A stretch of DNA of 64,000 nucleotides. Origin: Patiria miniata (Eukaryota). Both the position numbers and the translations under genes were made by a program. The first letter of the stretch is position 1, and every line of letters starts with the position of its first letter. Where the stretch lies: assembly GCF_015706575.1 (NCBI RefSeq), contig NW_024037060.1, positions 945,983-1,009,982 of the forward strand, in the 5' to 3' direction. Of this stretch, positions 1 through 22,300 are shown in pieces. The notes below the pieces were generated by a model. That model saw only the letters and a program-made list of their open reading frames with translations. It was not told the origin of the DNA and ran no database searches.

Positions 1-934
1 TTGGCTCCTAATGGCTTAACGGTTTGGAGTGCAAAAGCCATTATATGTACCTTTTTGATGACTCTATTAATTCAAATAACGAAACCTTATATCAAAAAAT
101 CCGATTATTCATTAACGAACCCTTTTTGCCGACAAATTCAGTTGACTCGCCTAAAACGTAATTAAATTTTCTGATCGCATGAAACTTTGTAGAATCGATA
201 TTTTTTCTAAAAGCCCGCAATATTTGTTCATAAAGTGAACACGGTGTCCTGGCGTTCTAATACCAAAACACATTAACTCTAGTAGCAGGTGCAACACAAA
301 CTGCACACAGTCCAATCTTGGTTGTTACGGTTGCACGACTGCAGACATTGCCTCACCCCCCCCCCCCCCTCAGTCCCTGCGCACATGCGGTGATACCTGC
401 AATGATTTGCCCCTACATTTTTTCCTCTTCTTTCCCGCCAAATCTGTAACGAACACAAAAGGCTTTGACGTTGGCTTCTGGTCAGAGATCTGTGACATGA
501 AAGCAACTCCTCCCCGATCGAGCGTCTGCAATACTCGCAGAGGAGATCAAGTTGCACGTATTTTGTAGGATATTTCCCAAGAGATTTTCGCAATGTTCTT
601 CAAACGTACCATTTGGGTAAAAGCAAATAGACCACAGCTGCCCGAGAAAGGAGAATAGACCGTCGCCTCCAGGGAAAGGAGATAATAATAATTTGGGAGG
701 CTAATCATCCTTACTCGCAGCTGGGATGCTGAATTGCGAAGGACGCGGCTACAACGTGGTCGGGCCGCTGGCACGTAAAGGCGCCTCTGGCTGCCAGCCA
801 CATCGACCCATATAAGACCACGGAGCACAGCCTGAGATCGAAAGTGTTTGATTTTTCCGGAGGGAGGAAAACCGGAGGGCCCGGAGAAAAACCCTCGTGG
901 CACAGGAGAGAACCAACGCACAACTCTACTCACA

Positions 935-1012
935 TGCGATCTGCGGCCAGGATTCGAACCGTGGTCACCTTGGTGAGAGGCGAGCGCTTTACGCACACGC
1001 CACCCGTGCCAC
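935..1012 (-). other. tRNA-like 78-nt segment with a perfect B-box (GGTTCGAATCC). It does not fold into a clean cloverleaf and is probably a SINE-derived or tRNA-pseudogene fragment.
   Basis: The minus-strand sequence is GTGGCACGGGTGGCGTGTGCGTAAAGCGCTCGCCTCTCACCAAGGTGACCACGGTTCGAATCCTGGCCGCAGATCGCA. A T-arm is recognisable only with a bulged C. No complementary acceptor stem could be found by eye. Confidence 0.3.
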
Positions 1013-4000
1013 CCTAGATCAGTGGAATTACGGCACACGAAGTAGAATTTTGCACTTAAGTTCCCAAAATTCCCTCAACTACGGACTAGGCCAAAACAGT
1101 TTGCGAAACTGACCGCTTTCTTTTAAAAAATAAATTGCGGAGCATCAATGTACATAGTACAAGGCCCGAACACATGGGCCTCTCACATTTTGTGGGGCCT
1201 CCGGTTCTGTTAATTGTCTACCACTGTTCGTCCTTTAGTGGGAAAAACAAGATTTTGAGCTGGACCCGAAAGCTTCAGTGTAGGACTTTATTTGTACGCA
1301 GTATTAGTCAGTCAGAGGACGATAGTCTGGCCCTTCAGGTTTAGCAAGATCGTACCAATGGGAACGAGGTTGAGGCCAGTCCACAATATGAGATATTGGT
1401 ATATCGTAAATTCATATTGTTAACGTCACTGAGATGATAGCAGTCTACTCGCTCCCAAAACGTGGCGCATTATATTTTTAGTTTTACCAAAGGCTGTAGC
1501 GCATCGCTTGGGCAAAAGGTTTTAATCCCAAATTTGAAATATACATTTAAATGTATATATGAATCTTGAAGTTTTATTTCGAAACGATTTCCTTATTTTA
1601 TTAAGTAGTGCGCACTCGCACTGCGCACTTCATCAAGGCTCCGACCCTCCAGGACGGAGTCTTTATCTAGACGGGTGAAAGACATCGAGCTGTATTCAGT
1701 TAATTTAATTATAGTCCTATGGTTGCGCCTGGGTTTATTTTGTCGCCTAATGGCAATCAGGAGTGGCGATTTATTGTACAATTTGGGGGACCATTAGCTT
1801 GAGAAATTGGGGGGGGGGGGGTTGAACGCTAACATAGTTAGACTGTTTTTCAAGCATGTACGTTTGGACATAAATACATCTGTATTTACGACTTTTCCTA
1901 CCATTATGTAACGTTAAATGATGTATTAAGTTGGTAATGGACGACAGTATATTTGAGCTTATTACAAATTGGAAACACAATTTTTGTGAACGTTTGTGTA
2001 ATTTTGGTAAAGCTTTGCAACGGGATTAATCCCCCCCCCGACTGTCCTCGAGATCGCCACCCGTAGCAATATTTCAAAATTCAGGAAAACAGGTTTCGCC
2101 CCTCTGTACTTCATAAAATTAGGTTGAGTAGAATTTATCCATCTATTACACCCAAGGGGGATTTACCTAACAGCTTGTTTTTCAGGTCGAATGGCACAAA
2201 TTAATTCATAAATCACACTGGTTGTTTTCGCTGCGAATGTAGAACTAAAGCGGCTCATATTATAGCGGTTTTATTATGGGCTATGACTGGTACTTCTTGC
2301 GTCTAGGATCGCACTAATTGCATTCCAATTTTGAGACAACTGCGTTTCATGAGATTTTCTTTTTTTCATTCCTAATTTTCTCTGTTTTTTTCTCTTTAAA
2401 ATAGTGACGGTGGATATATCATGGGTCTCTTAAAGTACAGTGGGTTTGTATTTTGCCCAAATGTTGGTCAACACACCCCCTGCCGTCACTAAGTCTCTTA
2501 GTATACTTGGCAACGGCTGGGGGTAACGCACGTGACCACGGGTAGCCAATCAGCCACTTTCATGGACGCGTGATTTATTGCAAACCGTGGCAAGTTCTAA
2601 GGCGACACTATTTTGTTCACGCGAGACAAAGCTTTTTAGAAAAAAAACTAAAAAAAAATCAATTTCTTTCGTCAATTAATTGGCAATTTTAGTCCCGCTG
2701 GCATCCTTGGGTACGTTTGTGTGAAGCTCCTTGATATACCCTTTCCTGAATTGACAGGTCGTATATTTTTAACTGCTGGAAGTCAAAGCCAATTAGCTAG
2801 CCAACTAATCAGTACAATGCGACACAAACATGACGCCGATTTATTGCGTTTTTGTTATGAAACTGCCTGCGTATGTTCCCTGGAGTCTCGATAATAAGCA
2901 CGGGAAAACAGCACGGAGCTGAAACACTTAATGAGGTAGAAGCCTGAGCCTGCTTCTTCCATGAAATTGAAACGAGCTTCCAATTGTGGCAAACCTCCAT
3001 CAATTTATTTTCATATCCATCACTGTCTAATATGTAACCCTTCATCAGTTCATGGTAATCAGTTCAGCAAACGGTAATTTTTCTGCACTGCTACATATTG
3101 TCAGGTTTGGCTCAAGAGAGGGGGTTAATCGGTCGAGGGTAAGCCCAAGGGGAGGCCGTGATTTTTCCTTTTTTTGCGGCCGGGGGGGGGGGGGTGTTTA
3201 AACCCCCTTACCCCCACCGTAGATCCGGCACTGATTATACACTGCCAGTCTTTTTTGCAAGGTTGTGTGACCTCACTTATCCTGCCAAGAAATAGTTCGT
3301 TCAAACAGCCAAACACGTTGACCTACATCGATGATATTTTAAGATCATAAACGAAAACAAAGTCTTCCTTGGCAAAAGAGGTGCTTCCCCATGTTAATGA
3401 GCTCCTTCGTTCTAGATTTGACTTTCAAATTTCCACCGCCGTGTTTGTTCGAGTAGGAATTTCGCTCTCAGGTTGCGAGTAAACAAGAGATCGGATTATT
3501 ATCATGCTAAAAGGGGCATTCAATTTTTCAAACTTGAATTTGATTTTTCCCCCCTATAGTCGAATAGTACACAGTGGCGTATAAATAGGCATGACCTTCT
3601 TTAGGTGCATTTCAAGGGGGTAACAAAGGCAGTGACACGTATCATTAACAATGCAATATGATTTGTCAAGATCTCAAAAGGGGGGGGGGGGGGTTTGAAG
3701 GGGACGTTTCCCCCCATTGCGTCCCCCAGTAGTTGCGCCACTGGCAGTACATTTCCAATTTTAGGAGGAAAAGGATACGAGAAATAATTCAGAAAACTGA
3801 AAAAAAAAAGCAGCAGAAAACGGGATAACCAATAAAAGGAAAACATCATAAATAAATACTCTTTTTGTCTTATATCTTTTGTATTCTGTAAAATAGTTCA
3901 TTTGTAAAAACAAGGCACTTGAGGGTGGAATATGCAAAACAGTGTGTATTTTTATCTGGTTCTCAATTTTACTCAAGCAATTCATTGAGGTAGCTGAAAT

Positions 4001-5772
4001 TATAAAAAGCAATAATGCACTGGCTCTGAAGCTTTTTTGCTGTTGTTTCGTATCAGATTTACCATATTGTACACATTTACTAAAACAGTTTATTTGGATA
4101 ACATATATGTTTTAACTGATCTAAGCACAAAAAATAACAAAATGGAAAAAGCGATTGGATTGGATACAAAAAATTAACAAACAGATCTTTCTTTTTTTTA
4201 AAGTCTTTAGGTAATTTAGGTGTTTTGGGCATGCAAGTCACTGATTCTCAAAATCCCAAAAACTTGGCAAAACGGAGAGTATGTGACCATGTTATTACGG
4301 TTTCTTTAGCATTTCTCCCAGTGCGTTTTTTCCACATCAATGTTCTGGCAAATGTTCACCCCCATGTAACTTAAAGACAAATAAGAACATATTCTTAAAG
4401 CGCTTAACATGAAGCAGTTATTATAGAGTATTTACATGATTACAAAAATATCTTTAATAACGAAACGTGCATCGATTTTCAGTAAACAAGGCACATAAAG
4501 GAACAAATGCATATCTATAATGTACACTTTAATTTACGTTAAAACCGCACTGTCTTTGCAGCACTATACACATTTTTCAAATTTGATAAACGATAACATT
4601 ATTTTGACAATGAGTGAAAGGTTTGGACATTTTAATTTAAATAAATCATTTTTATGTGATTCATTTGTATAAAGGAAATAAGTGCAAAGCAAGACGATAT
4701 TAGCAAATCTTGCAATCACATAAAAACTCTTCTGTAGCCCTACGCTAATCATATTTATCAATTTCTTTTCATTATTATTTTGAAGGTGCATTTTGAAATT
4801 ACATATTGGAAAACCCCATGTAATTGGTCTCCTAGGATAATTCAACCCTCCCGTTCATTTATCCCTGCGACTTTCCCACAGGCCCGGCCAATTTCCCTCG
4901 AAAAGTTGTTTCGATAAGCCGTAGGCGGCAGCAAACTGCTTTAAAAGTGACACACAGCAATACGCACAGTGCACTAGCACACGAATGTATTGTCCTTATG
5001 CAGACAAACAATTTAAGTGGAATGGAAGTTTGAAGTTTGACGCTGCGTTATATCGCCTCGCAGCTGCTTGACCATGGTTCATTGCAAGTTCCCATCCAGG
5101 CTGACATGCAGCTTTGGTTTTCAGTCCCTACCTGATTTCGTGAGTTGTCCTAGATTATCCCTACGAGGTTTATTGCCTCTAAAAGTGGGTACTTCTCCCG
5201 TCTTCTTCCTTAAGGCTTTCCAGCTACAGTACCTAATTGTGCACTCTTGAAGAATTATTTTGTTTCATTGTAAGAAAACAGATCAGTTGAGAATAAGTCA
5301 GAGAGGCAAAACGTTACATTCCAGGTGCTTGCTTGTTTCTATCAAACTAAAGAGAAAAGATTGCCTCTCCAAAGATACACGTAACACTTGATTCTGCGCA
5401 AAACATTCGTCTACGTTATCGCAGGTGTCATTTAGTATATGATGACTATACGTCAAAGAATCGTGTTTCCTTGTACGGGAGCGCAGAAACGTGCAGTTTC
5501 GATCTGTCCAATCATAATAGGGTGGAAAAAATGAAAAGATCAGCGGTAATGGTCATTGAACACTAACAAGCAAATCGTCATTTAATATGAGCAGTGAACT
5601 TGTTTTTTTAAGAGTTCTTTGCTGGCAGAATAACAAAATTATTTGATTATTTTATAATTGTTATCAATATTTGAACTCCAAAATGTTCCATCACAATAAG
5701 ACACAAAATTTCAACTCAGTTTATTGGCCCAAAAGAAAAGAAAACGATGTGAAGCAAAATGTAAAGACTCAC

Positions 5773-5849
5773 CAGAAGTAATCGTAGCTTATAACAATTC
5801 TATCCGGTCTTCCCCTTGCGCCGAGGTCACGCAAGGCCGATTCGTGGGT
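5773..5849 (-). CDS. Candidate 77-nt exon (THESALRDLGARGRPDRIVISYDYF) in a phase compatible with the 6316..6399 exon.
   Basis: The acceptor is gttttcttttcag|ACCCACGAA and the donor is TTCTG|GTGAGTC. Only the phase-0 frame is open. An AATAAA (plus-strand tttatt at 5720..5725) lies about 50 nt downstream. Confidence 0.25.
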
Positions 5850-6315
5850 CTGAAAAGAAAACATTTGACAAATGTTACCCAACCATCCAAAAAATAACCC
5901 ATTTCTCGAGATGGGATCTCAATTCCTTTTCTCTCTCACTTTATACATTGTAAGAATGCTATTTTAAGTGAAATAAGACCTTCCAAACCAATTTGAAATA
6001 ATCACTGTGGATCTAAAGATTTAATGGGATATTTTAAACTGTAGAGTATTACATTCAACACAGTGCATAAATCTGCAAGGGGCAGTTTGCAACTTACATT
6101 TTAACCATTCCAACGCTTATTACATTGTTTTGTCGTTGTGGTTTCCCAAAGAAAGATCAAAGCAAGGTATCTTTCGCAAGGACACAAGTGCTACGGTAAG
6201 TTCGAGTTTTGATTAACAATATTGTTGGCCCACAAAGTCATTGCTGATACTTGTATAATAATTGGCTTCATTTGATCCATCAGCGATGTTATTTGTGCGC
6301 CGATTACTTTCTTAC

Positions 6316-6399
6316 CGTAGTAAATGGAGTTCCTCTGACCGGACTTTGAGACCGACGCCTGGGGAGTCTGAACCGATCCGTCTGCTGGCCATCATCGCT
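6316..6399 (-). CDS. Candidate 84-nt internal exon (SDDGQQTDRFRLPRRRSQSPVRGTPFTT). It could be an alternative continuation of the mucin cytoplasmic tail or an exon of a downstream minus-strand gene.
   Basis: There is a strong acceptor (tactttttttattctgcag|AGCGATG) and a strong donor (ACTACG|GTAAGAAAGT). It is open in phase 0, which is the phase produced if the tail exon used the CAG|GTATAA donor-like site that overlaps its stop codon. Confidence 0.3.
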
Positions 6400-7340
6400 C
6401 TGCAGAATAAAAAAAGTAATACAATTCCTGACCAGATCCCCGAGTGAGTTTTAGGAAAAAGTGTTTTTAATTATTAGTTATTTGTAGGAATTAAGAAACG
6501 CGAAAATTGATCTGACATTATGTAGGTAAAAGTTGACTGTTCCTGTTGTTTACACTGTGAAAGATTCTGTTAAAATGCCAATTACTCATAAGTTGCTCTG
6601 GTAATTTGTGACCAATTTTGGGCTCACATTTATGTTTCAGAGCATTTTGTGGGCTGAAAGTTGGAATTGGAGTGAACGACGAAGTTTGGTTAATGAAATT
6701 CCATTCTTTAATGTTATACACCTTATAATAGACGATTTCAAATTAGATTTAGACCTCGTTCTCTTTTTTTGTTGAGAGGATTCAAAAACAGGAAAGTTCC
6801 CTTTAGCACTGACAGCCTCGACCTGACTACTTATCCGGAACTAATTCCCTGTTTTCTTAGTAAATAAAGAAAGAGACGTATTCAAAAATTTGAAGAAAGG
6901 TAGGATACATTTGTTTTTGCGTGTTTCGTTAAACTCACCACAGTTGCACTTCTTTTTACATGGGATTGTGTACGAGAGCTACTGGCTAGTTCGGTCTCCG
7001 GGAGGCGTAGCAGTGGGAGACTGTAGGCTCTCTGATTCTGTGAAAGACAGAAATGCTAGATAAGATTGAGCATCCCGAGACTATTAGACAACTAAACGTA
7101 ACGTCCCCAGATGGAATACTGTTGCCTTATAGGAGCCAAAGCTTCTGCCTGTCATTTATCTCTAGTAGATCGGGTTGCAGAAGCGAAAGTCTTCGATGCA
7201 AATGCCAAATGCAAACCATCAATAACAAAAGAAAAAGGTTTCAAGTTCAAGTTTGCAGATGGAAATAATTTGTCTCGCAAATTCCGTACCACTTTACAAC
7301 AGAAGGGTTTGACTATATCTGTTAAACTTAAAAATGATAA

Positions 7341-7346
7341 TTTATT
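7341..7346 (-). other. AATAAA polyadenylation signal about 40 nt downstream of the TAA stop.
   Basis: Plus-strand tttatt at 7341..7346 is the reverse complement of AATAAA, in the context ctAAAATAAAttatc on the minus strand. Confidence 0.4.
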
Positions 7347-7383
7347 TTAGACTGTTCCAAATAAATTGACTTCTGTGTGACAT

Positions 7384-7787
7384 TTATACCTGTGGCACTG
7401 TCTCGAAGACGGTTTTCAGATTCTGCGCCCACTCCAGTTCCCTCTCAGTGAGCGATTCCTGCGACCCAGAGCCCACCCCTTCACCGGCGTGTCTTGCCCC
7501 AGTAAACACAGCCTCGTCCCCGTCGGTCACCATGTCCAAGTTACTCAGACCGTAGCTGGACGGGTACAGGGACTGGCTGCCGTGTGGGGTGACTCGCCTC
7601 CACACGGGCTGACTTAGGCTCAACTCGTCCGGTGACTCCAGGGAGTAAGTGGACGATTTACGCCTCTTCTTCCGCCGACGCAGAAGGTGAACTACGACCA
7701 AGACGAGGGCGATGATGAGAAGCACTGCAGCGGTGACGGAGGACGCTATGATGATGATGGTGTAGTCTTGCTCTGGGCTGATTGGAA
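7384..7787 (-). CDS. Terminal coding exon with a transmembrane helix (IIIIASSVTAAVLLIIALVLVVVHLL), a basic stop-transfer stretch (RRRKKRRK) and a Ser/Tyr-rich cytoplasmic tail. The stop codon is TAA at 7384..7386.
   Basis: The acceptor is cttacaaaaatttag|TTCCAATCAGCC, with G+TT giving Val (phase 1). A 26-residue hydrophobic segment is followed by an Arg/Lys cluster. The tail carries YSLE/YPSS/YGLS tyrosines and an acidic C-terminus. Confidence 0.7.
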
Positions 7788-7951
7788 CTAAATTTTTGTA
7801 AGAAATTATAACGATTTCAAGTATAAAAACTATTTTAAGATTATAAAATATCTAACGTCATACTTTTTGTGTGTATGATGTAATGCTTTAAAATTAACAT
7901 GATTTAACTGAATTTGACTAGTCAGACTGACAAGATCATTCTTTTTTATAC

Positions 7952-8092
7952 CTAATGAACAGTATCTGCCCGGTATATCTGTCCTTAGATCAGTGTATCC
8001 ATCCACACAGCTACACGTGAAGTAGTCTTCCGTGTCCGTACAAATAGCGTTGTCGCTGCAGTCATCCATGTCGGCCTCACATTCGTTTAGAG
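7952..8092 (-). CDS. Exon encoding a second EGF-like domain (ALNECEADMDDCSDNAICTDTEDYFTCSCVDGYTDLRTDIPGRYCSL).
   Basis: The acceptor is cctatttag|CTCTAAACGAATGT and the donor is TTAG|GTATAA. Six Cys are present with C-x-C-x-x-G-Y. The phase is 1 in and 1 out, consistent with its neighbours. Confidence 0.7.
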
Positions 8093-8393
8093 CTAAATAG
8101 GTAAATCGAGCAATACATGCCGGTGAATGTTGAGAATTGGTAAGTTATTTATGTTTCTCAGTAATAGGTGCAGTTAAGATTGGTTAGGTTTAATATTTGA
8201 AACACCCTAAAATACTGTGCGGGGAACCAATTACACTTTTCATAACAAGCTTTAGCTGCTATCCCGCAGCTAAACAGAAACAGTAATAAACGGTAATAGA
8301 TAATCGACGGTTAATCAGTTGGACGATCAAAAAGAGTCATTGTCCATTTCAAACTCTTCGATTTGTTAAATTGATGGATTTAAATCGACTTAC

Positions 8394-8616
8394 CACTCAC
8401 AATGATGGAATCATTGGCCACCCGTAAAGTATTGTTTAAAGTATCCGATAATACTGCCTCCTTCATAGTGTCTTGAAGGTAGGTTTCGTTGACCGTAGAA
8501 TTAGAGGCTAGTTCGATGGTGTACTCGGCTTTAATACTCCCAGGTGCAAATCGAATGACACTACAGCTTATGAAGATGGTGCTTGTGAGAGGGTCGTTCC
8601 TGTAAACCAATGCAAC
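8394..8616 (-). CDS. Exon encoding the C-terminal half of the SEA domain, including the autoproteolysis-type motif (VALVYRNDPLTSTIFISCSVIRFAPG|SIKAEYTIELASNSTVNETYLQDTMKEAVLSDTLNNTLRVANDSIIVS).
   Basis: The acceptor is cgtttttctcccacag|GTTGCATTG (phase 0). The donor is GTGAGTG|GTAAGT (phase 1), which is the only choice that keeps the next exon open. The motif RFAPG-SIKAEY parallels the FRPG-SVVVQ cleavage site of mucin SEA domains. There are four N-x-S/T sequons. Confidence 0.7.
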
Positions 8617-8774
8617 CTGTGGGAGAAAAACGATTGGCTGTTTATACAATCAATCCAAAGTGTACGTGGAGTAACGTATACAGCTTTTGGAACGAATATG
8701 TGAATTGAGAGAAAATTTCTCTTTACCAGCCCTATTTACCAGATGAAATCATCATGAGGTTTACTCCTACTCAC

Positions 8775-8917
8775 CGCGGAGCAGACTGTTATTTCAAGAG
8801 ATATAAAACTCTCGCTCGTTCGAATGGTCAAATCTGTGGTGAATACTGCCTCTTGACTCGCACCAGTCTCATCGACGAGTCCTGTTATACGGAATGATGA
8901 CTGGAAGGACTTCAGCT
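8775..8917 (-). CDS. Exon encoding the N-terminal half of the SEA domain (..LKSFQSSFRITGLVDETGASQEAVFTTDLTIRTSESFISLEITVCSA).
   Basis: The acceptor is ctcatgctgtactcccatccag|AGCTGAAG, in phase with the preceding exon. The donor is a canonical GCG|GTGAGT. The exact acceptor is the least certain boundary in the gene. Confidence 0.5.
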
Positions 8918-9697
8918 CTGGATGGGAGTACAGCATGAGATGGTTCAGTGGCGTCGATGGTTACATTTTGACATTAACAAAATGGTTTGACATGAATGTG
9001 AACAGCTTAGTACGCTATCGTTATCCCTTATCGGTGTGCTTTGTTATTGCTCAATTCAAGAGAATTGTTGATGCTCAATGGCACTCATACTTGTCACTCA
9101 TTATACGCATTGAACTAACTAGATACCCTATTGTGGCTACAACTTTGTTTGCTTCTTCAGCCTTATTGCACGACGGTTGAAATGGATGTCAGATATGGTG
9201 CATGTCAACCGGAGGGCCTATACTAAAGGTTTAATCATTCAGATTGATATCAATTCAATAGTTATGAACCAAGACTGATGAGTATTCGGATATTTGCAGG
9301 ATTTCATGACACTTAGGAACGAACCTCGTTTTACTCCAACATTTGAAATTAAAGCGGTAGTTGCGATCCAAACACAACTAATCCTTGTTAATTGAATAGG
9401 ATTTGTTTCACCAGTTTAAGGACTCTCGGTACTCAACTAGATCAGTCAGAGGACCACAGTTACCGGAAATTATAGAAGTGGTACTTTACTCCCATGTGTT
9501 CTGAATTTGCGTATGTTTGTAATGTGATAACCCCGTTGGTGTAAGGAACATTTTGTGTGCGCGTGTAACCTGCACATGAGCGTGGTACAAATTGTACCAT
9601 ATTAATAATACCCTCTGATTGCGTTCGCCAGTTAAACCCGGAGTTTATTTTAATGTAAAACCATTTTCCACCGCTTAAAATACATGATTTATCTTAC

Positions 9698-9820
9698 TGG
9701 TACATTTGCCGGTCGAGTCTAGCGTATAGCCTGTCCTGCATTCACATGTGTATCCGATTTGTTGGTCTATGCACTCCTGAACCACACGATCGCAGTTATC
9801 GAGGAACAATGCACATTCAT
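9698..9820 (-). CDS. Exon encoding a calcium-binding EGF-like domain (DECALFLDNCDRVVQECIDQQIGYTCECRTGYTLDSTGKCT).
   Basis: The acceptor is tttttttcccgttcttttcag|ATGAATGT and the donor is CCA|GTAAGA. Six Cys have EGF spacing, with an N-terminal D-E-C motif and a C-x-C-x-x-G-Y motif. The phase is compatible with the giant exon (phase 1 in, phase 1 out). Confidence 0.7.
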
Positions 9821-10330
9821 CTGAAAAGAACGGGAAAAAAATTAATATATCAGCTTCAATTTACAGATGCCATTGAAATCAAAGCAAAACTGGATAACGC
9901 TGTGTGGCGAAGTAACAACAACTTGTCAATACCCCTTTTTGAGATACTTCAACTAGGAGGGTGTATTTGGTTCGCTTCAACTCATTTCCACGTATGACAC
10001 TTTTGTCTTAACTCAAGTTTTAAAGTCGTCTCACCCCATCATGGCTGCAATGATCTCAAACAGGCTAGCAAACACTTTTATTGACAATTGTGTGGACAGG
10101 GTACACAAACCATTTATTAAGTTGCCTCAGGGGAATGAACCTGAATATAAGTGCACGTCTTGGCGTTCAAGTCCTTAATTAATGTCCCCTTTTTGACAGT
10201 TGACGGCGTGCTTGTGTACAACGTCCATACTGTTCATATATCAGAAGGATATTAAGATATCTTGTTTTAATTATTGGGTGTATTAGTTCCATTGGTATTG
10301 CGTAATTAAACTTGATAACAAAACACGTAC

Positions 10331-13300
10331 CAATCAAATTTGTAGCTGTCACAGTTGTGATTGCTGGATTGAGAGGCGTAGTGACTTCTGAGGTGGTTTC
10401 CAACTTCTCCGTGGTGGCTGCCAATGTTGATGTTGCAAATGATGATGGGTTGCCAGGAGTCGTAGTCTGGACAGTAGAGGTTGCCATTGTAGATATCAAG
10501 CGTAGAGATGTTGCTTCAGAAATAGTACCAGCTTGTTGAGTGCTAGTTAAGTGAGACGGAATTAGACTAGTGGTCGCCTCTTCTGTTGACGTTACTTTGC
10601 TTGTTGCAGGACTGACTGAAGTGGCAAACTGCATAGTGCTTCCTACTGTAGATAACACGTCTGGTGTTGTTTGATCGATTGTAGTTGCCAATTGATCAGT
10701 GCTTGTTATGACAGTGGAGGCAAGTTCTTCCGATGAAGACTCCAGAGTTGTACCAGATTTCTCCGTTGTTTCGAAAACAGTTGTTACAACGGCTTGAGAT
10801 GTAGGATACAATGTAGTGTCTTCCTTCTCTGTTGAAGGTGGAATATTTGTCGTTTGTGCCTCTGTTGTCGGCTCAAGGGTTGATGGAATGATACTTGTAG
10901 CATCTTGATTCGTGGTAGCCACCTCTGTTGACGCTTCTTTGGATGTTGCCTGATTGGTCATACTACCAACCTCCGTAGTGGGCTCTATCGTGGATAACAA
11001 GTCTTGTGTTGTTTTATCGATTGTAGTTGCTGCTTGATCAGTGCTTGTTATGACAGTGGAGGTGAGATCCTCTGTTGAGGATTCCAGAGTTGTAACATCC
11101 GTTGTCTCGAAAACAGTTGTTACAACTGTTTGGGATGTAGGATACAATGTAGTGTCTTCCTTCTCTGTTGAAGGTGGAATATTTGTCGTTTGTGCCTCTG
11201 TTGTCGGCTCAAGGGTTGATGGAATGATACGTGTAGCATCCTGATTCGTGGTAGCCACCTCTGTTGACGCCTCTTTGGATGTTGCCTGATTGGTCGTAGT
11301 ACCAACCTCCGTAGTGCCTTCTATCGTGGATAACAAGTCTGGTGTTGTTTGATCGATACTAGTTGCTGCTTGTTCAGTGCTTGTTATGACAGTGGAGGCG
11401 AGATCCTCTGTTGAAGATTCCAGAGTTGTACCATATTGCTCCGTTGTCTTGAAAACAGTTGTTGCATCTGCTTGAGATATAGGATACAATGTAGTGTCTT
11501 CCTCCTCTGTTGTAGCTGCAATATTGGTCGTTTGTGCATCTGTTGTCGGTTCAAGGGTTGATGGAATGAGACTTGTAGCATCCTGATTCGTGGTAGCCAC
11601 CTCTGTCGACGCTTCTTTGGATGTTACCGGATTGGCCGTAGTACCAACCTCCGTAGTGCCTCCTGCTGTGGATAACAAGTCTTGTGTTGTTTGATCGATT
11701 CTAGTTGCTGCTTGTTCAGTGCTTGTTATGACAGTGGAGGCGAGATCCTCTGTTGAAGATTCCAGAGTTGTAACATCCGTTGTCTCGAAAACTGTTGTTG
11801 CATCTGCTTGAGATGTAGGATACAATGTAGTGCCTTCCTTCTCTGTTGTAAGTGGAATATTTGTCGTTTGTGCCTCTGTTGTCGGTTCAAGGGTTGATGG
11901 AATGATACTTGTAGCATCCTGATTCGTGGTAGCCACCTCTGTTGACGCTTCTTTGGATGTTGCCTGATTGGTCGTACTACCAACCTCCGTAGTGGGCTCT
12001 ATCGTGGATAATAAGTCTGGTGTTGTTTTATCGATTATAGTTGCTGCTTGTTCAGTGCTTGTTATGACAGTGGAGGCGAGATCCTCTGTTGAAGATTCCA
12101 GAGTTGTAACATCCGTTGTCTCGAAAACAGTTGTTACCGCTGCTTGAGATATAGGATACAATGTAGTGTCTTCCTCCTCTGTTGTAAGTGGAATATTTGT
12201 CGTTTGTGCCTCTGTTGTCGGTTCAAGGGTTGATGGAATGATACTTGTAGCATCCTGATTCGTGGTAGCCACCTCTGTTGACGCTTCTTTGGATGTTGCC
12301 TGATTGGTCGTACTACCAACCTCCGTAGTGGGCTCTATCGTGGATAACAAGTCTTGTGTTGTTTGATCGATAGCAGTTGCTTCTTGTTCAGTGTTTGTTA
12401 TGACAGTGGAGGCGAGATCCTCTGTTGAAGATTCCAGAGTCGTACCATATTGCTCCGTTGTCTCGAAAACAGTTGTTGCATCTGCTTGAGATATAGGATA
12501 CAATGTAGTGTCTTCCTCCTCTGTTGTAAGTGGAATATTTGTCGTTTGTGCCTCTGTTGTCGGTTCAAGGGTTGATGGAATGAGACTTGTAGCATCCTGA
12601 TTCGTGGTAGCCACCTCTGTCGACGCTTCTTTGGATGTTACCGGATTGGCCGAAGTACCAACCTCCGTAGTGCCTCCTGCTGTGGATAACAAGTCTTGTG
12701 TTGTTTGATCGATACTAGTTGCTGCTTGTTCAGTGCTTGTTATGACAGTGGAGGCGAGATCCTCTGTTGTAGATTCTAGAGTTGTAACATCCGTTGTCTC
12801 GAAAACAGTTGTTACAGCTGCTTGAGATGTAGGATACAATGTAGTGCCTTCCTTCTCTGTTGTAAGTGGAATATTTGTCGTTTGTGCCTCTGTTGTCGGT
12901 TCAAGGGTTGATGGAATGAGACTTGTATCATCCTGATTCGTGGTAGCCACCTCTGTTGACGTTTCTTTGGATGTTGCCTGATTGATCGTACTACCAACCT
13001 CCGTAGTGGGCTCTATCGTGGATAACATTTCAGGTGTTGTTTTATCGATTGTAGTTGCTGCTTGTTCAGTGCTTGTTATGACAGTGGAGGCGAGATCCTC
13101 TGTTGAAGATTCCAGAGTTGTACCAGATTTCTCCGTTGTCTCGAAAACTGTTGTTGCATCTGCTTGAGATGTAGGATACAATGTAGTGTCTTCCTCCTCT
13201 GTTGTAGCTGCAATATTGGTCGTTTGTGCCTCAGTTGTCGGTTCAAGGGTTGATGGTATGAGACTTGTAGCATCCTGATTCGTGGTAGCCACCTCTGTCG

Positions 13301-16300
13301 ACGCTTCTTTGGATGTTACCTGATTGGCCGTAGTACCAACCTCCGTAGTGCCTCGTGCTGTGGATAACAAGTTTAGTGTTGTTTGCTCGATACTAGTTGC
13401 TGCTTGTTCAGTGCTTGTTATGACAGTGGAGGTGAGATCCTCTGTTGAAGATTCCAGAGTTGTAACATCCGTTGTCTCGAAAATAGTTGTTACAACTGCT
13501 TGAGATGTAGGATACAATGTAGATCCTTCCTTCTCTGTTGTAAGTGGAATATTTGTCGTTTGTGCCTCTGTTGTCGGTTCAAGGGTTGATGGAATGATAC
13601 TTGTAGCATCCTGATTCGTGGTAGCCACCTCTGTTGACGCTTCTTTTGAAGTTACCGGATTGGCCGTAGTACCAACCTCCGTAGTGCCTCCTGCTGTGGA
13701 TAACAAGTCCTGTGTTGTTTGATCGATAGTAGTTGCTTCTTGTTCAGTGCTTGTTATGACAGTGGATACGAGATCCTCTGTTGAAGATTCCAGAGTTGTA
13801 CCAGATTTCTCCGTTGTCTCGAAAACTGTTGTTGCATCTGCTTGAGATGTAGGATACAATGTAGTGTCTTCCTCCTCTGTTGTAGCTGCAATATAGGTCG
13901 TTTGTGCCTCAGTTGTCGGTTCAAGGGTTGATGGAATGAGACTTGTAGCATCCTCATTCGTGGTGGCCACCTCTGTCGACGCTTCTTTGGATGTTACCGG
14001 ATTGGCCGTACTACCAACCTCCGTAGTGCCTTCTATCGTGGATAACAAGTCTGGTGTTGTTTGATCGATACTAGTAGCTGCTTGTTCAGTGCTTGTTATG
14101 ACAGTGGAGGCGAGATCCTCTGTTGATGATTCCAGAGTTGTAACATCCGTTGTCTGGAAAACAGTTGTAACAGCTGCTTGGGATGTAGGATACAATGTAG
14201 TGCCTTCCTTGTCTGTTGTAAGTGGAATATTTGTCGTTTGTGCCTCTGTTGTCGGTTCAAGGGTTGATGGAATGATACTTGTAGCATCCTGATTCGTGGT
14301 AGCCACCTCTGTTGATGCTTCTTTGGAAGTTACCGGATTGGCCGTAGTACCAACCTCCGTAGTGCCTCCTGCTGTGGATAACAAGTATTGTGTTGTTTGA
14401 TCGATTGTAGTTGCTTCTTGTTCAGTGCTTGTTATGACAGTGGAGGCGAGATCCTCTGTTGAAGATTCCAGAGTTGTACCAGATTTCTCCGTTGTCTCGA
14501 AAACTGTTGTTGCATCTGCTTGAGATGTAGGATACAATGTAGTGTCTTCCTCCTCTGTTGTAGCTGCAATATTGGTCGTTTGTGCCTCAGTTGTCGGTTC
14601 AAGGGTTGATGGTATGAGACTTGTAGCATCCTGATTCGTGGTAGCCACCTCTGTCGACGCTTCTTTGGATGTTACCTGATTGGCCGTACTACCAACCTCC
14701 GTAGTGCCTCGTGCTGTGGATAACGAGTCTAGTGTTGTTTGCTCGATACTAGTTGCTGCTTGTTCAGTGCTTGTTATGACAGTGGAGGCAAGATCCTCTG
14801 TTGAAGATTCCAGAGTTGTAACATCCGTTGTCTCGAAAACAGTTGTTACAGCTGCTTGAGATGTAGGATACAATGTAGATCCTTCCTTCTCTGTTGTAAG
14901 TGGAATATTTGTCGTTTGTGCCTCTGTTGTCGGTTCAAGGGTTGATGGAATGATACTTGTAGCATCCTGATTCGTGGTAGCCACCTCTGTTGACGCTTCT
15001 TTGGAAGTTACCGGATTGGCCGTAGTACCAACCTCCGTAGTGCCTCCTGCTGTGGATAACAAGTCCTGTGTTGTTTGATCGATAGTAGTTGCTTCTTGTT
15101 CAGTGCTTGTTATGACAGTGGAGGCGAGATCCTCTGTTGAAGATTCCAGAGTTGTACCAGATTTCTCCGTTGTCTCGAAAACTGTTGTTGCATCTGCTTG
15201 AGATGTAGGATACAATGTAGTGTCTTCCTCCTCTGTTGTAGCTGCAATATAGGTCGTTTGTGCCTCAGTTGTCGGTTCAAGGGTTGATGGAATGAGACTT
15301 GTAGCATCCTCATTCGTGGTGGCCACCTCTGTCGACGCTTCTTTGGATGTTACCGGATTGGCCGTAGTACCAACCTCCGTAGTGCCTTCTATCGTGGATA
15401 ACAAGTCTGGTGTTGTTTGATCGATACTAGTTGCTGCTTGTTCAGTGCTTGTTATGACAGTGGAGGCAAGATCCTCTGTTGAAGATTCCAGAGTTGTAAC
15501 ATCCGTTGTCTGGAAAACAGTTGTAACAGCTGCTTGAGATGTAGGATACAATGTAGTGCCTTCCTTGTCTGTTGTAAGTGGAATATTTGTCGTTTGTGCC
15601 TCTGTTGTCGGTTCAAGGGTTGATGGAATGATACTTGTAGCATCCTGATTCGTGGTAGCCACCTCTGTTGACGCTTCTTTGGATGTTGCCTCATTGGTCG
15701 TACTACCAACCTCCGTAGTTGGCTCTATCGTGGATAATAAGTCTGGTGTTGTTTTATCGATTGTAGTTGCTGCTTGTTCAGTGCTTGTTATGACAGTGGA
15801 GGCGAGATCCTCTGTTGAAGATTCCAGAGTTGTAACATCCGTTGTCTCGAAAACAGTTGTTACCGCTGCTTGAGATGTAGGATACAATGTAGTGCCTTCC
15901 TTTTCTGTTGTAAGTGGAATATTTGTCGTTTGTGCCTCTGTTGTCGGTTCAAGGGTTGATGGAATGATACTTGTAGCATCCTGATTCGTGGTAGCCACCT
16001 CTGTTGATGCTTCTTTGGAAGTTACCGGATTGGCCGTAGTACCAACCTCCGTAGTGCCTCCTGCTGTGGATAACAAGTATTGTGTTGTTTGATCGATTGT
16101 AGTTGCTTCTTGTTCAGTGCTTGTTATGACAGTGGAGGCGAGATCCTCTGTTGAAGATTCCAGAGTTGTACCAGATTTCTCCGTTGTCTCGAAAACTGTT
16201 GTTGCATCTGCTTGAGATGTAGGATACAATGTAGTGTCTTCCTCCTCTGTTGTAGCTGCAATATTGGTCGTTTGTGCCTCAGTTGAAGGTTCAAGGGTTG

Positions 16301-19300
16301 ATGGTATGAGACTTGTAGCATCCTGATTCGTGGTAGCCACCTCTGTCGACGCTTCTTTGGATGTTACCTGATTGGCCGTAGTACCAACCTCCGTAGTGCC
16401 TTGTGCTGTGGATAACAAGTCTAGTGTTGTTTGCTCGATACTAGTTGCTGCTTGTTCAGTGCTTGTTATGACAGTGGAGGCAAGATCCTCTGTTGAAGAT
16501 TCCAGAGTTGTAACATCCGTTGTCTCGAAAACAGTTGTTACCGCTGCTTGAGATGTAGGATACAATGTAGATCCTTCCTTCTCTGTTGTAAGTGGAATAT
16601 TTGTCGTTTGTGCCTCTGTTGTCGGTTCAAGGGTTGATGGAATGATACTTGTAGCATCCTGATTCGTGGTAGCCACCTCTGTTGACGCTTCTTTGGATGT
16701 TACCGGATTGGCCGTAGTACCAACCTCCGTAGTGCCTTCTATCGTGGATAACAAGTCTTGTGTTGTTTGATCGATTGTAGTTGCTTCTTGTTCAGTGCTT
16801 GTTATTACAGTGGAGGCGAGATCCTCTGTTGAAGATTCCAGAGTTGTACCAGATTTCTCCGTTGTCTCGAAAACTGTTGTTCCATCTGCTTGAGATGTAG
16901 GATACAATGTAGTGTCTTCCTCCTCTGTTGTAGCTGCAATATTGGTCGTTTGTGCCTCAGTTGTCGGTTCAACGGTTGATGGAATGATACTTGTAGCATC
17001 CTGATTCGTGGTAGCCTCCTCTGTCGACGCTTCTTTGGATGTTACCGGATTGGCCGTAGTACCAACCTCCGTAGTGCCTTCTATCGTGGATAACAAGTCT
17101 TGTGTTGTTTGATCGATAGTAGTTGCTTCTTGTTCAGTGCTTGTTATGACAGTGGAGGCGAGATCCTCTGTTGAAGATTCCAGAGTTGTACCAGATTTCT
17201 CCGTTGTCTCGAAAACTGTTGTTGCATCTTCTTGAGATGTAGGATACAATGTAGTGTCTTCCTCCTCTGTTGTAGCTGCAATATAGGTCGTTTGTGTCTC
17301 AGTTGTCGGTTCAAGGGTTGATGGAATGAGACTTGTAGCATCCTCATTCGTGGTGGCCACCTCTGTCGACGCTTCTTCGGATGTTACCGGATTGGCCGTA
17401 GTACCAACCTCCGTAGTGCCTTTTATCGTGGATAACAAGTCTGGTGTTGTTTGATCGATACTAGTTGCTGCTTGTTCAGTGCTTGTTATGACAGTGGAGG
17501 CAAGATCCTCTGTTGAAGATTCCAGAGTTGTAACATCCGTTGTCTCGAAAACAGTTGTTACAGCTGCTTGAGATGTAGGATACAATGTAGATCCTTCCTT
17601 CTCTGTTGTAAGTGGAACATTTGTCGTTTGTGCCTCTGTTGTCGGTTCAAGGGTTGATGGAATGATACTTGTAGCATCCTGATTCGTGGTAGCCACCTCT
17701 GTTGACGCTTCTTTGGAAGTTACCGGATTGGCCGTAGTACCAACCTCCGTAGTGCCTCCTGCTGTGGATAACAAGTCCTGTGTTGTTTGATCGATAGTAG
17801 TTGCTTCTTGTTCAGTGCTTGTTATGACAGTGGAGGCGAGATCCTCTGTTGAAGATTCCAGAGTTGTACCAGATTTCTCCGTTGTCTCGAAAACTGTTGT
17901 TGCATCTGCTTGAGATGTAGGATACAATGTAGTGTCTTCCTCCTCTGTTGTAGCTGCAATATAGGTCGTTTGTGCCTCAGTTGTCGGTTCAAGGGTTGAT
18001 GGAATGAGACTTGTAGCATCCTCATTCGTGGTGGCCACCTCTGTCGACGCTTCTTTGGATGTTACCGGATTGGCCGTAGTACCAACCTCCGTAGTGCCTT
18101 CTATCGTGGATAACAAGTCTGGTGTTGTTTGATCGATACTAGTTGCTGCTTGTTCAGTGCTTGTTATGACAGTGGAGGCGAGATCCTCTGTTGAAGATTC
18201 CAGAGTTGTAACATCCGTTGTCTGGAAAACAGTTGTAACAGCTGCTTGAGATGTAGGATACAATGTAGTGCCTTCCTCCTCTGTTGTAGCTGCAATATTG
18301 GTCGTTTGTGCCTCAGTTGTCGGTTCAAGGGTTGATGGTATGAGACTTGTAGCATCCTGATTCGTGGTAGCCACCTCTGTCGACGCTTCTTTGGATGTTA
18401 CCTGATTGGCCGTAGTACCAACCTCCGTAGTGCCTTGTGCTGTGGATAACAAGTCTAGTGTTGTTTGCTCGATACTAGTTGCTGCTTGTTCAGTGCTTGT
18501 TATGACAGTGGAGGCAAGATCCTCTGTTGAAGATTCCAGAGTTGTAACATCCGTTGTCTCGAAAACAGTTGTTACAGCTGCTTGAGATGTAGGATACAAT
18601 GTAGATCCTTCCTTCTCTGTTGTAAGTGGAATATTTGTCGTTTGTGCCTCTGTTGTCGGTTCAACGGTTGATGGAATGATACTTGTAGCATCCTGATTCG
18701 TGGTAGCCACCTCTGTTGACGCTTCTTTGGATGTTACCGGATTGGCCGTAGTACCAACCTCCGTAGTGCCTTCTATCGTGGATAACAAGTCTTGTGTTGT
18801 TTGATCGATTGTAGTTGCTTCTTGTTCAGTGCTTGTTATTACAGTGGAGGCGAGATCCTCTGTTGAAGATTCCAGAGTTGTACCAGATTTCTCCGTTGTC
18901 TCGAAAACTGTTGTTCCATCTGCTTGAGATGTAGGATACAATGTAGTGTCTTCCTCCTCTGTTGTAGCTGCAATATTGGTCGTTTGTGCCTCAGTTGTCG
19001 GTTCAACGGTTGATGGAATGATACTTGTAGCATCCTGATTCGTGGTAGCCTCCTCTGTCGACGCTTCTTTGGATGTTACCGGATTGGCCGTAGTACCAAC
19101 CTCCGTAGTGCCTTCTATCGTGGATAACAAGTCTTGTGTTGTTTGATCGATAGTAGTTGCTTCTTGTTCAGTGCTTGTTATGACAGTGGAGGCGAGATCC
19201 TCTGTTGAAGATTCCAGAGTTGTACCAGATTTCTCCGTTGTCTCGAAAACTGTTGTTGCATCTTCTTGAGATGTAGGATACAATGTAGTGTCTTCCTCCT

Positions 19301-22300
19301 CTGTTGTAGCTGCAATATAGGTCGTTTGTGTCTCAGTTGTCGGTTCAAGGGTTGATGGAATGAGACTTGTAGCATCCTCATTCGTGGTGGCCACCTCTGT
19401 CGACGCTTCTTTGGATGTTACCGGATTGGCCGTAGTACCAACCTCCGTAGTGCCTTCTATCGTGGATAACAAGTCTGGTGTTGTTTGATCGATACTAGTT
19501 GCTGCTTGTTCAGTGCTTGTTATGACAGTGGAGGCAAGATCCTCTGTTGAAGATTCCAGAGTTGTAACATCCGTTGTCTCGAAAACAGTTGTTACAGCTG
19601 CTTGAGATGTAGGATACAATGTAGATCCTTCCTTCTCTGTTGTAAGTGGAACATTTGTCGTTTGTGCCTCTGTTGTCGGTTCAAGGGTTGATGGAATGAT
19701 ACTTGTAGCATCCTGATTCGTGGTAGCCACCTCTGTTGACGCTTCTTTGGAAGTTACCGGATTGGCCGTAGTACCAACCTCCGTAGTGCCTGCTGCTGTG
19801 GATAACAAGTCCTGTGTTGTTTGATCGATAGTAGTTGCTTCTTGTTCAGTGCTTGTTATGACAGTGGAGGCGAGATCCTCTGTTGAAGATTCCAGAGTTG
19901 TACCAGATTTCTCCGTTGTCTCGAAAACTGTTGTTGCATCTGCTTGAGATGTAGGATACAATGTAGTGTCTTCCTCCTCTGTTGTAGCTGCAATATAGGT
20001 CGTTTGTGCCTCAGTTGTCGGTTCAAGGGTTGATGGAATGAGACTTGTAGCATCCTCATTCGTGGTGGCCAGCTCTGTCGACGCTTCTTTGGATGTTACC
20101 GGATTGGCCGTAGTACCAACCTCCGTAGTGCCTTCTATCGTGGATAACAAGTCTGGTGTTGTTTGATCGATACTAGTTGCTGCTTGTTCAGTGCTTGTTA
20201 TGACAGTGGAGGCGAGATCCTCTGTTGAAGATTCCAGAGTTGTAACATCCGTTGTCTGGAAAACAGTTGTAACAGCTGCTTGAGATGTAGGATACAATGT
20301 AGTGCCTTCCTTGTCTGTTGTAAGTGGAATATTTGTCGTTTGTGCCTCTGTTGTCGGTTCAAGGGTTGATGGAATGATACTTGTAGCATCCTGATTCGTG
20401 GTAGCCACCTCTGTTGACGCTTCTTTGGATGTTGCCTGATTGGTCGTACTACCAACCTCCGTAGTGGGCTCTATCGTGGATAATAAGTCTGGTGTTGTTT
20501 TATCGATTGTAGTTGCTGCTTGTTCAGTGCTTGTTATGACAGTGGAGGTGAGATCCTCTGTTGAAGATTCCAGAGTTGTAACATCCGTTGTCTCGAAAAC
20601 AGTTGTTACCGCTGCTTGAGATGTAGGATACAATGTAGTGCCTTCCTTTTCTGTTGTAAGTGGAATATTTGTCGTTTTTGCCTCTGTTGTCGGTTCAAGG
20701 GTTGATGGAATGATACTTGTAGCATCCTGATTCGTGGTAGCCACCTCTGTTGACGCTTCTTTGGAAGTTACCAGATTGGCCGTAGTACCAACCTCCGTAG
20801 TGCCTCCTGCTGTGGATAACATGTCTTGTGTTGTTTGATCGATAGTAGTTGCTTCTTGTTCAGTGCTTGTTATGACAGTGGAGGCGAGATCCTCTGTTGA
20901 AGATTCCAGAGTTGTACCAGATTTCTCCGTTCTCTCGAAAACTGTTGTTGCATCTGCTTGAGATGTAGGATACAATGTAGTGTCTTCCTCCTCTGTTGAA
21001 GCTGCAATATAGGTCGTTAGTGCCTCAGTTGTCGGTTCAAGGGTTGATGGAATGAGACTTGTAGCATCCTCATTCGTGGTGGCCACCTCTGTTGACGCTT
21101 CTTTGGATGTTGCCTGATTGGTCGTACTACCAACCTCCGTAGTGGGCTCTATCGTGGATAACAAGTCTTGTGTTGATTTATCGATTGTAGTTGCTGCTTG
21201 TTCAGTGCTTGTTATGACAGTGGAGGTGAGATCCTCTGTTGAGGATTCCAGAGTTGTAACATCCGTTGTCTCGAAAACAGTTGTTACAGCTGCTTGAGGT
21301 GTAGGATACAATGTAGTGCCTTCCTTCTCTGTTGTAAGTGGAATATTGGTCGTTTGTGCCTCAGTTGTCGGTTCAAGGGTTGATGGAATGATACTTGTAG
21401 CATCCTGATTCGTGGTACCCACCTCTGTCGACGCTTCTTTGGATGTTACCGGATTGGCCGTAGTACCAACCTCCGTAGTGCCTCCTGCTGTGGATAACAA
21501 GTCTTGTGTTGTTTGATCGATACTAGTTGCTGCTTGTTCAGTGCTTGTTATGACAGTGGAGGCGAGATCCTCTGTTGAAGATTCCAGAGTTGTAACATCC
21601 GTTGTCTCGAAAACAGTTGTTACAGCTGCTTGAGATGTAGGATACAATGTAGTGCCTTCCTTCTCTGTTGTAAGTGGAATATTTGTCGTTTGTGCCTCTG
21701 TTGTCGGTTCAAGGGTTGATGGAATGATACTTGTAGCATCCTGATTCGTGGTAGCCACCTCTGTTGACGCTTCTTTGGATGTTGCCTGATTGGTCGTACT
21801 ACCAACCTCCGTAGTGGGCTCTATTGTGGATAACAAGTCTTGTGTTGTTTGATCGGTAGTAGTTGCTGCTTGTTCAGTGCTTGTTATGACAGTGGAGGCG
21901 AGATCCTCTGATGAAGGTTCCAGAGTTGTAACATCCGTTGTCTCGAAAACAGTTGTTACAGCTGCTTGAGATGTAGGATACATTGTAGTGCCTTCCTTCT
22001 CTGTTGTAAATGGAATATTTGTCGTTTGTGCCTCTGTTGTCGGTTCAAGGGTTGATGGAATGTGACTTGTATCATCCTGATTCGTGGTAGCCACCTCTGT
22101 TGACGTTTCTTTGGATGTTGCCTGATTGGTCGTACTACCAACCTCCGTAGTGGGCTCTATCGTGGATAACAAGTCTTGTGTTGTTTTATCGATTGCAGTT
22201 GCTGCTTGTTCAGTGCTTGTTATGACAGTGGAGGTGAGATCCTCTGTTGAGGATTCCAGAGTTGTAACATCCGTTGTCTCGAAAACAGTTGTTACAGCTG

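Follow-up and report, generated by a model that had tools for sequence, protein, structure and literature searches.

The cytoplasmic tail of a mucin-like giant gene on the minus strand of the window from the bat star Patiria miniata – the window being the whole 64,000-nucleotide stretch of DNA that was analysed – very probably does not end at the TAA (7386..7384) that closes its open reading frame. That codon is, with high probability, not the stop of the mature mRNA, in which the tail would continue through three small exons, here called X, A and B, and end in ...SYDYF with a split TGA. In the mechanism that we favour, CAG|GTATAA at 7390/7389 would act as 5′ splice site for a phase-0 intron of 352 nt, the tail would run on through 7037..6939, 6399..6316 and 5849..5773, and the protein would end in ...SYDYF; the stop would be a TGA split TG|A by a further intron, and one or more additional exons, almost entirely 3′ untranslated region, would lie below 5773. 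The long tail, including all three exons, is already in the public annotation: it is real but ordinary. Its importance beyond correct annotation is small: the ORF-style stop codon inside GTATAA is, in this gene, the start of an intron, and the true tail is 86 residues longer than that stop suggests, all of them added by X, A and B.

Read along the minus strand, after what would be its signal peptide and some 44 kb occupied by 336-bp repeats, the gene has an EGF domain, a SEA domain, another EGF domain, a transmembrane (TM) segment and the tail. A signal-peptide-like start (MSIWTVLAVASLLYPMTESSFA, with its ATG at about 57674, minus strand) opens the repeat array, which spans 10570..54533 on the same strand with some 130 copies. 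In the GCF_015706575.1 assembly, the array is not one open frame but at least 19 ORFs – the splits being either real frame breaks or long-read indel errors – and the last of these ORFs runs in frame into the annotated coding sequence. The array is absent from the RefSeq model, XP_038057968.1, which begins at an internal Met (10634) of that last ORF and thus differs from the gene described here in lacking both the 44-kb array and the signal peptide that lie upstream in the same reading direction. The 530 annotated residues probably form just the C-terminal part of a membrane mucin with about 16,000 residues in all.

Within XP_038057968.1, Pfam places, above the respective cut-offs, a calcium-binding EGF domain (PF07645, residues 101-140), a SEA domain (PF01390, residues 146-253, scoring 36.5 bits where the cut-off is 26.4) and a second EGF domain (PF12947, residues 269-298). 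The SEA domain adjoins the membrane and has EGF-like domains on both its sides; the same Pfam scan finds no domain in the cytoplasmic tail. The protein would cross the membrane once, through a hydrophobic 23-mer followed by RRRKKRRK, and its cytoplasmic tail is spread over four exons. A by-product of the analysis, more useful than the tail itself, is that XP_038057968.1 seems to cover no more than the last 530 residues of what may be a protein of about 16,000; this would be a membrane mucin of a sea star with an EGF-SEA-EGF-TM layout as in vertebrate intestinal mucins.

The exon that carries the TM segment and the proximal tail (7390..7787, minus strand; spliced mapping at 100% identity) encodes the TM segment IIIIASSVTAAVLLIIALVLVVV, the stop-transfer sequence RRRKKRRK and about the first 95 residues of the tail. 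It is entered in phase 1 and left in phase 0, and it aligns flush with two homologues. Its minus-strand end reads ...GTG CCA CAG (7392-7390), followed by GTA (7389-7387) and TAA (7386-7384). A preliminary description of the locus had noted that the stop codon sits inside a donor-like CAG|GTATAA, with coordinates that prove right on direct reading of the minus strand, and that splicing after CAG (7390) would skip the stop in phase 0; the RefSeq model uses this very donor. There, GTATAA (7384..7389, minus strand), which includes the in-frame TAA, is the 5′ splice site that opens the 352-nt phase-0 intron.

Scored with a generic splice-site position weight matrix, the donor at 7390 reaches 4.6 bits, the second-lowest value among the gene's nine donors, and the next three donors reach 8.8-10.8 bits. 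The GTATAA type accounts for two of the nine, the other belonging to the exon that encodes the second EGF domain (EGF2; 7952..8092, minus strand), whose donor, TTAG|GTATAAAA, scores 2.4 bits. Because the EGF2 exon reaches the TM exon in frame only through the TTAG|GTATAAAA junction, GTATAA does work as a donor in this gene, and the 2.4-bit EGF2 site must be constitutive.

The three downstream exons lie on the minus strand, and all belong to XP_038057968.1. Exon X (6939..7037; 99 nt, phase 0-0) encodes NQRAYSLPLLRLPETELASSSRTQSHVKRSATV and is open in frame 0 only; its acceptor, ctgtctttcacag, scores 10.4 bits, its GTGAGT donor 9.8 bits, and its GC content is 0.52. It separates the tail exon from the 84-nt exon and had been overlooked earlier. 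Exon A (6316..6399; 84 nt, phase 0-0, GC 0.57) encodes SDDGQQTDRFRLPRRRSQSPVRGTPFTT and is bounded by the acceptor tttttttattctgcag (10.6 bits) and the donor GTAAGA (8.8 bits). Exon B (5773..5849; 77 nt) encodes THESALRDLGARGRPDRIVISYDYF from 5849..5775, followed by TG at 5774..5773, and has the acceptor tttcttttcag (10.9 bits) and a GTGAGT donor (10.8 bits). The chain from the tail exon through X and A to B is in frame throughout; X and A are both phase 0-0, and skipping one or both would preserve the frame.

The proposal that the 84-nt and 77-nt exons extend the mucin's cytoplasmic tail was sound: the exons, their splice sites and their translations had been read correctly, as direct reading of the minus strand confirms, and in the public model they are coding exons of the same gene. 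Two details need correction. For exon A, phase 0 had been taken as the sole open one, yet frame +1 is open as well; an ATG in frame +1 was considered as the start of an independent gene and rejected, since reading on from it meets a stop codon in B. Moreover, the tail exon had been joined directly to A (7390 to 6399), whereas the annotated chain runs from 7390 to 7037, from 6939 to 6399 and from 6316 to 5849. As this chain inserts exon X, an RNA-seq search for the 7390-to-6399 junction would look negative for the wrong reason.

The public model was recovered by scanning 1.84 billion representative proteins exhaustively with HMMER; the TM exon, X, A and B were concatenated into a 219-residue query. 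A 530-residue protein matches 219 of 219 residues at 100% identity and has the same C-terminal end as the query: it is XP_038057968.1 (UniProt A0A914A295), named 'uncharacterized protein LOC119729475 [Patiria miniata]'. Mapped onto the window, all 530 residues align at 100% identity in nine coding exons with GT-AG introns (minus strand: 10634..10331, 9820..9698, 8917..8775, 8616..8394, 8092..7952, 7787..7390, 7037..6939, 6399..6316 and 5849..5775), and the tail is identical to that described here in its donor at 7390, in X, A and B to 5775, and in its ...SYDYF end. The scan gave three matches in total: XP_038057968.1 and two short ORFs without a name. A word-indexed protein search, run with the 219-residue spliced tail and with the 266 residues from EGF2 to the end, returned no match, not even the identical RefSeq protein, and was therefore blind here; only the exhaustive HMMER scan recovered XP_038057968.1. 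A metagenome scan with six back-translated peptides yielded 149 pattern matches and no relative. The RefSeq entry is a predicted (XP_) model; in the animal, the mRNA would probably be spliced along this chain.

The end of the coding sequence deserves a closer look. After TTC (5777..5775), exon B has TG and then the donor GTGAGT; read-through would add Trp and then meet TGA, giving a 531-residue form for which an exact look-up finds no record. As the RefSeq protein ends at F, the model must splice at 5773 to an exon starting with A, which completes the stop as TG|A. For this further exon that the model requires, none of the AG|A acceptors stands out: those found below 5773 include 5393, 5338, 4120, 1666, 489 and 443, none of them compelling. 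The acceptor at 4120 scores 7.4 bits and has an AATAAA 26 nt downstream. Another candidate, the acceptor at 5346, was rejected: its exon would have T as first base, where the model needs A, and would lengthen the protein by 16 residues. The terminal exon could also lie beyond the window. In our view, a terminal exon with a single coding base is normally placed by gene predictors only from transcript alignments, not ab initio; solely from the split stop codon, we infer that the RefSeq tail model has transcript support.

Exons X, A and B were also weighed against the sequence around them. When a generic metazoan splice-site weight matrix was applied to both strands of positions 1..7389, these exons held three of the five acceptors with at least 10 bits and three of the seven donors with at least 8 bits. 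When each strong acceptor was combined with strong donors at a distance of 40-400 nt, the minus strand yielded six candidates – X, A and B ranked first, and two of the other three lacked an open frame – and the plus strand of the same interval yielded none; in 300 block shuffles, the mean number of open candidates was 0.07, and three or more were found in none (0/300). The GC content of the three exons is 0.52-0.57, compared with about 0.36-0.41 in surrounding 2-kb intervals, and with a codon-usage log-odds score that had this gene's own upstream exons and introns as its training set, the fraction of adjacent non-coding segments of the same length that reach the values of X, A and B is 0.003, 0 and 0, respectively; the splice, GC and codon signals resemble gene-predictor inputs and are therefore not fully independent of the RefSeq model. 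All three exons are open in the frame set by the upstream exon, for which the estimated chance is about 0.01 if they are picked by splice sites alone. No repeat family or transposon overlaps any of them.

Another line of evidence comes from two distant homologues of the TM exon, P0002 (41% identity) and P0003 (33%), at loci L001 and L002. Both are ORF calls on short genomic contigs (1512 and 1189 nt), from an NCBI assembly and a Logan assembly (GCA_014845345.1, SRR26532981). They align with the TM exon from the acceptor to the last codon, and the exon ends at the same column, in phase 0 (AAG|GTACGA). Past the GT, the three sequences have no similarity and stay open for 1, 3 and 38 codons; given this dissimilarity and the differing open lengths, the exon boundary is conserved and the apparent stop is not, as expected of an intron. 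For X, A and B, the HMMER library scan (1.84 billion representative proteins) found no homologue, and tblastn against the short contigs of L001 and L002 gave noise (best E-value 0.06, wrong strand); these exons are therefore without cross-species conservation as backing.

In the alignment of the TM exon, all three homologues share an invariant motif, GSQ(E/D)SLTERE with N(I/L)(K/R) after it (7470..7390 on the minus strand of the window, 750..825 in L001 and 950..1024 in L002). It ends the tail portion of the exon, the rest of which is poorly conserved except for DYT ahead of the TM segment and RRR behind it. The motif could be a conserved phosphorylation or binding site.

The best-surviving alternative, which we nevertheless consider unlikely, is that both tails are made: the weak GTATAA donor would compete with an intronic poly(A) site, unspliced transcripts giving a short tail and spliced ones the annotated long tail. 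The short form would end in ...ETVPQV before the stop and lack the last 86 residues, including the RRRSQSP site. Speaking for it are the in-frame stop two codons into the intron, the AATAAA (7341..7346, minus strand) 38 nt past that stop, and the low score of the donor, 4.6 bits, where the three that follow reach 8.8-10.8. An AATAAA within about 60 nt, however, is expected roughly 10% of the time – the minus strand has 13 in 7389 nt, about one every 570 nt, where base composition predicts 5.6 – and the one at 7346..7341 is probably a chance occurrence; the homologues have none near their donors, and the even weaker EGF2 donor of the same type must be constitutive.

This alternative is the earlier idea with default and alternative swapped: the preliminary description had cast the long tail as the alternative form, yet it is the only annotated one, RefSeq names the protein without any isoform label, and a collection of 15 billion proteins does not contain the exact short form. 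The short tail was one of eight hypothetical products looked up there exactly – with the skip-X, skip-A and skip-XA forms, read-through at B and three ORF-style fragments – all of them absent, although such look-ups cover deposited or predicted proteins and are thus weak evidence on isoforms.

That donor, TAA and AATAAA together make up a regulated splice-versus-polyadenylation switch, choosing between short- and long-tailed versions of a giant membrane mucin, seems to us quite unlikely. The secreted and membrane forms of immunoglobulin mu arise from a splice-versus-polyadenylation switch, which the hypothetical short form would resemble in layout only: a weak 5′ splice site would lose to a nearby downstream poly(A) signal, with an in-frame stop just past the donor. 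Were such a switch real, the RLPRRRSQSP segment, basic and rich in Ser, and the ...SYDYF C-terminus would be confined to the long tail, and frame-preserving skips of X or A could add tail variants.

It is very unlikely that the RefSeq extension is a prediction artefact, with an mRNA that ends at the TAA and into which X, A and B are never spliced. The model is computational, and its 5′ end, at an internal Met of the repeat array, is clearly imperfect; yet on that account splice sites, GC islands, frame compatibility and the conserved donor position would all be coincidence, and a split stop codon is an atypical ab initio product. Scarcely credible, finally, is the earlier fallback that X, A and B form a separate downstream gene on the same strand, the mucin ending at TAA 7384, in spite of the 352-nt gap from the tail exon and the AATAAA at 7346. 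The acceptor of X is among the five best in 7.4 kb (X is therefore an internal exon, not a first one), X, A and B have no frame-0 ATG, and a promoter and first exon would have to fit into no more than about 300 nt. X, A and B also keep the phase of the mucin tail, to which the public model joins them, and this leaves the fallback unneeded.

With the tail read through X, A and B, the gene can be set beside the vertebrate SEA-type mucins. MUC3A and MUC3B have 12 exons each, one of which, the PTS exon, measures 15.9 or 39.3 kb, and a C-terminal class I PDZ motif is conserved in the MUC3 cluster (PMC9578598). In MUC3A/B, MUC12, MUC13 and MUC17, a huge repeat exon is followed by many small SEA, TM and tail exons, and the layout is similar here. 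The Patiria miniata gene has the order EGF-SEA-EGF-TM-tail according to Pfam, and its repeats are Ser/Thr/Glu-rich and Pro-poor, unlike those of vertebrate SEA-type mucins. Its C-terminus, ...S-Y-D-Y-F, has Asp at −2 and is not a class I PDZ motif (S/T-X-hydrophobic), in contrast to the MUC3 cluster, and among 1.84 billion representative proteins searched with HMMER, the TM and tail region has no detectable similarity to MUC3-cluster mucins or to anything named. The analogy with MUC3/12/17 that had been drawn for the tail thus applies to the extracellular EGF-SEA-EGF-TM arrangement and the many small 3′ exons, but not to the tail sequence or the C-terminal PDZ motif. 'MUC3-like architecture' is a fair description; membership of the MUC3 cluster and orthology are not claimed.

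The second SEA exon (8616..8394, minus strand) contains ...IRFAPG SIKAEY.... The autocleavage site of MUC1, ...IKFRPG|SVVVQL, would fall at the same position, and the Gly-Ser dipeptide is kept in the Patiria miniata domain; by analogy, autoproteolysis of this SEA domain is conceivable. We found no publication on an echinoderm protein of this kind, and none is mentioned in an echinoderm extracellular-matrix review and a mucin-evolution paper where these were searched for the keywords SEA and mucin.

Two further features lie outside the coding exons. At about 1020..700 on the minus strand there is a tRNA-like stretch, with a B-box (GGTTCGAATCC, 960..950) followed by about 250 GC-rich nucleotides; an Rfam scan of 1..10000 gave no match at the gathering threshold, this stretch included, and by its sequence it looks like a tRNA-derived SINE. 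Homopolymer runs of 8-13 G or C also occur in the non-coding flanks, at about 365, 1815, 2035, 3190, 3690 and 62900; several share similar-looking contexts, for example next to GGGG...AAAC, and the runs may mark a dispersed repeat family.
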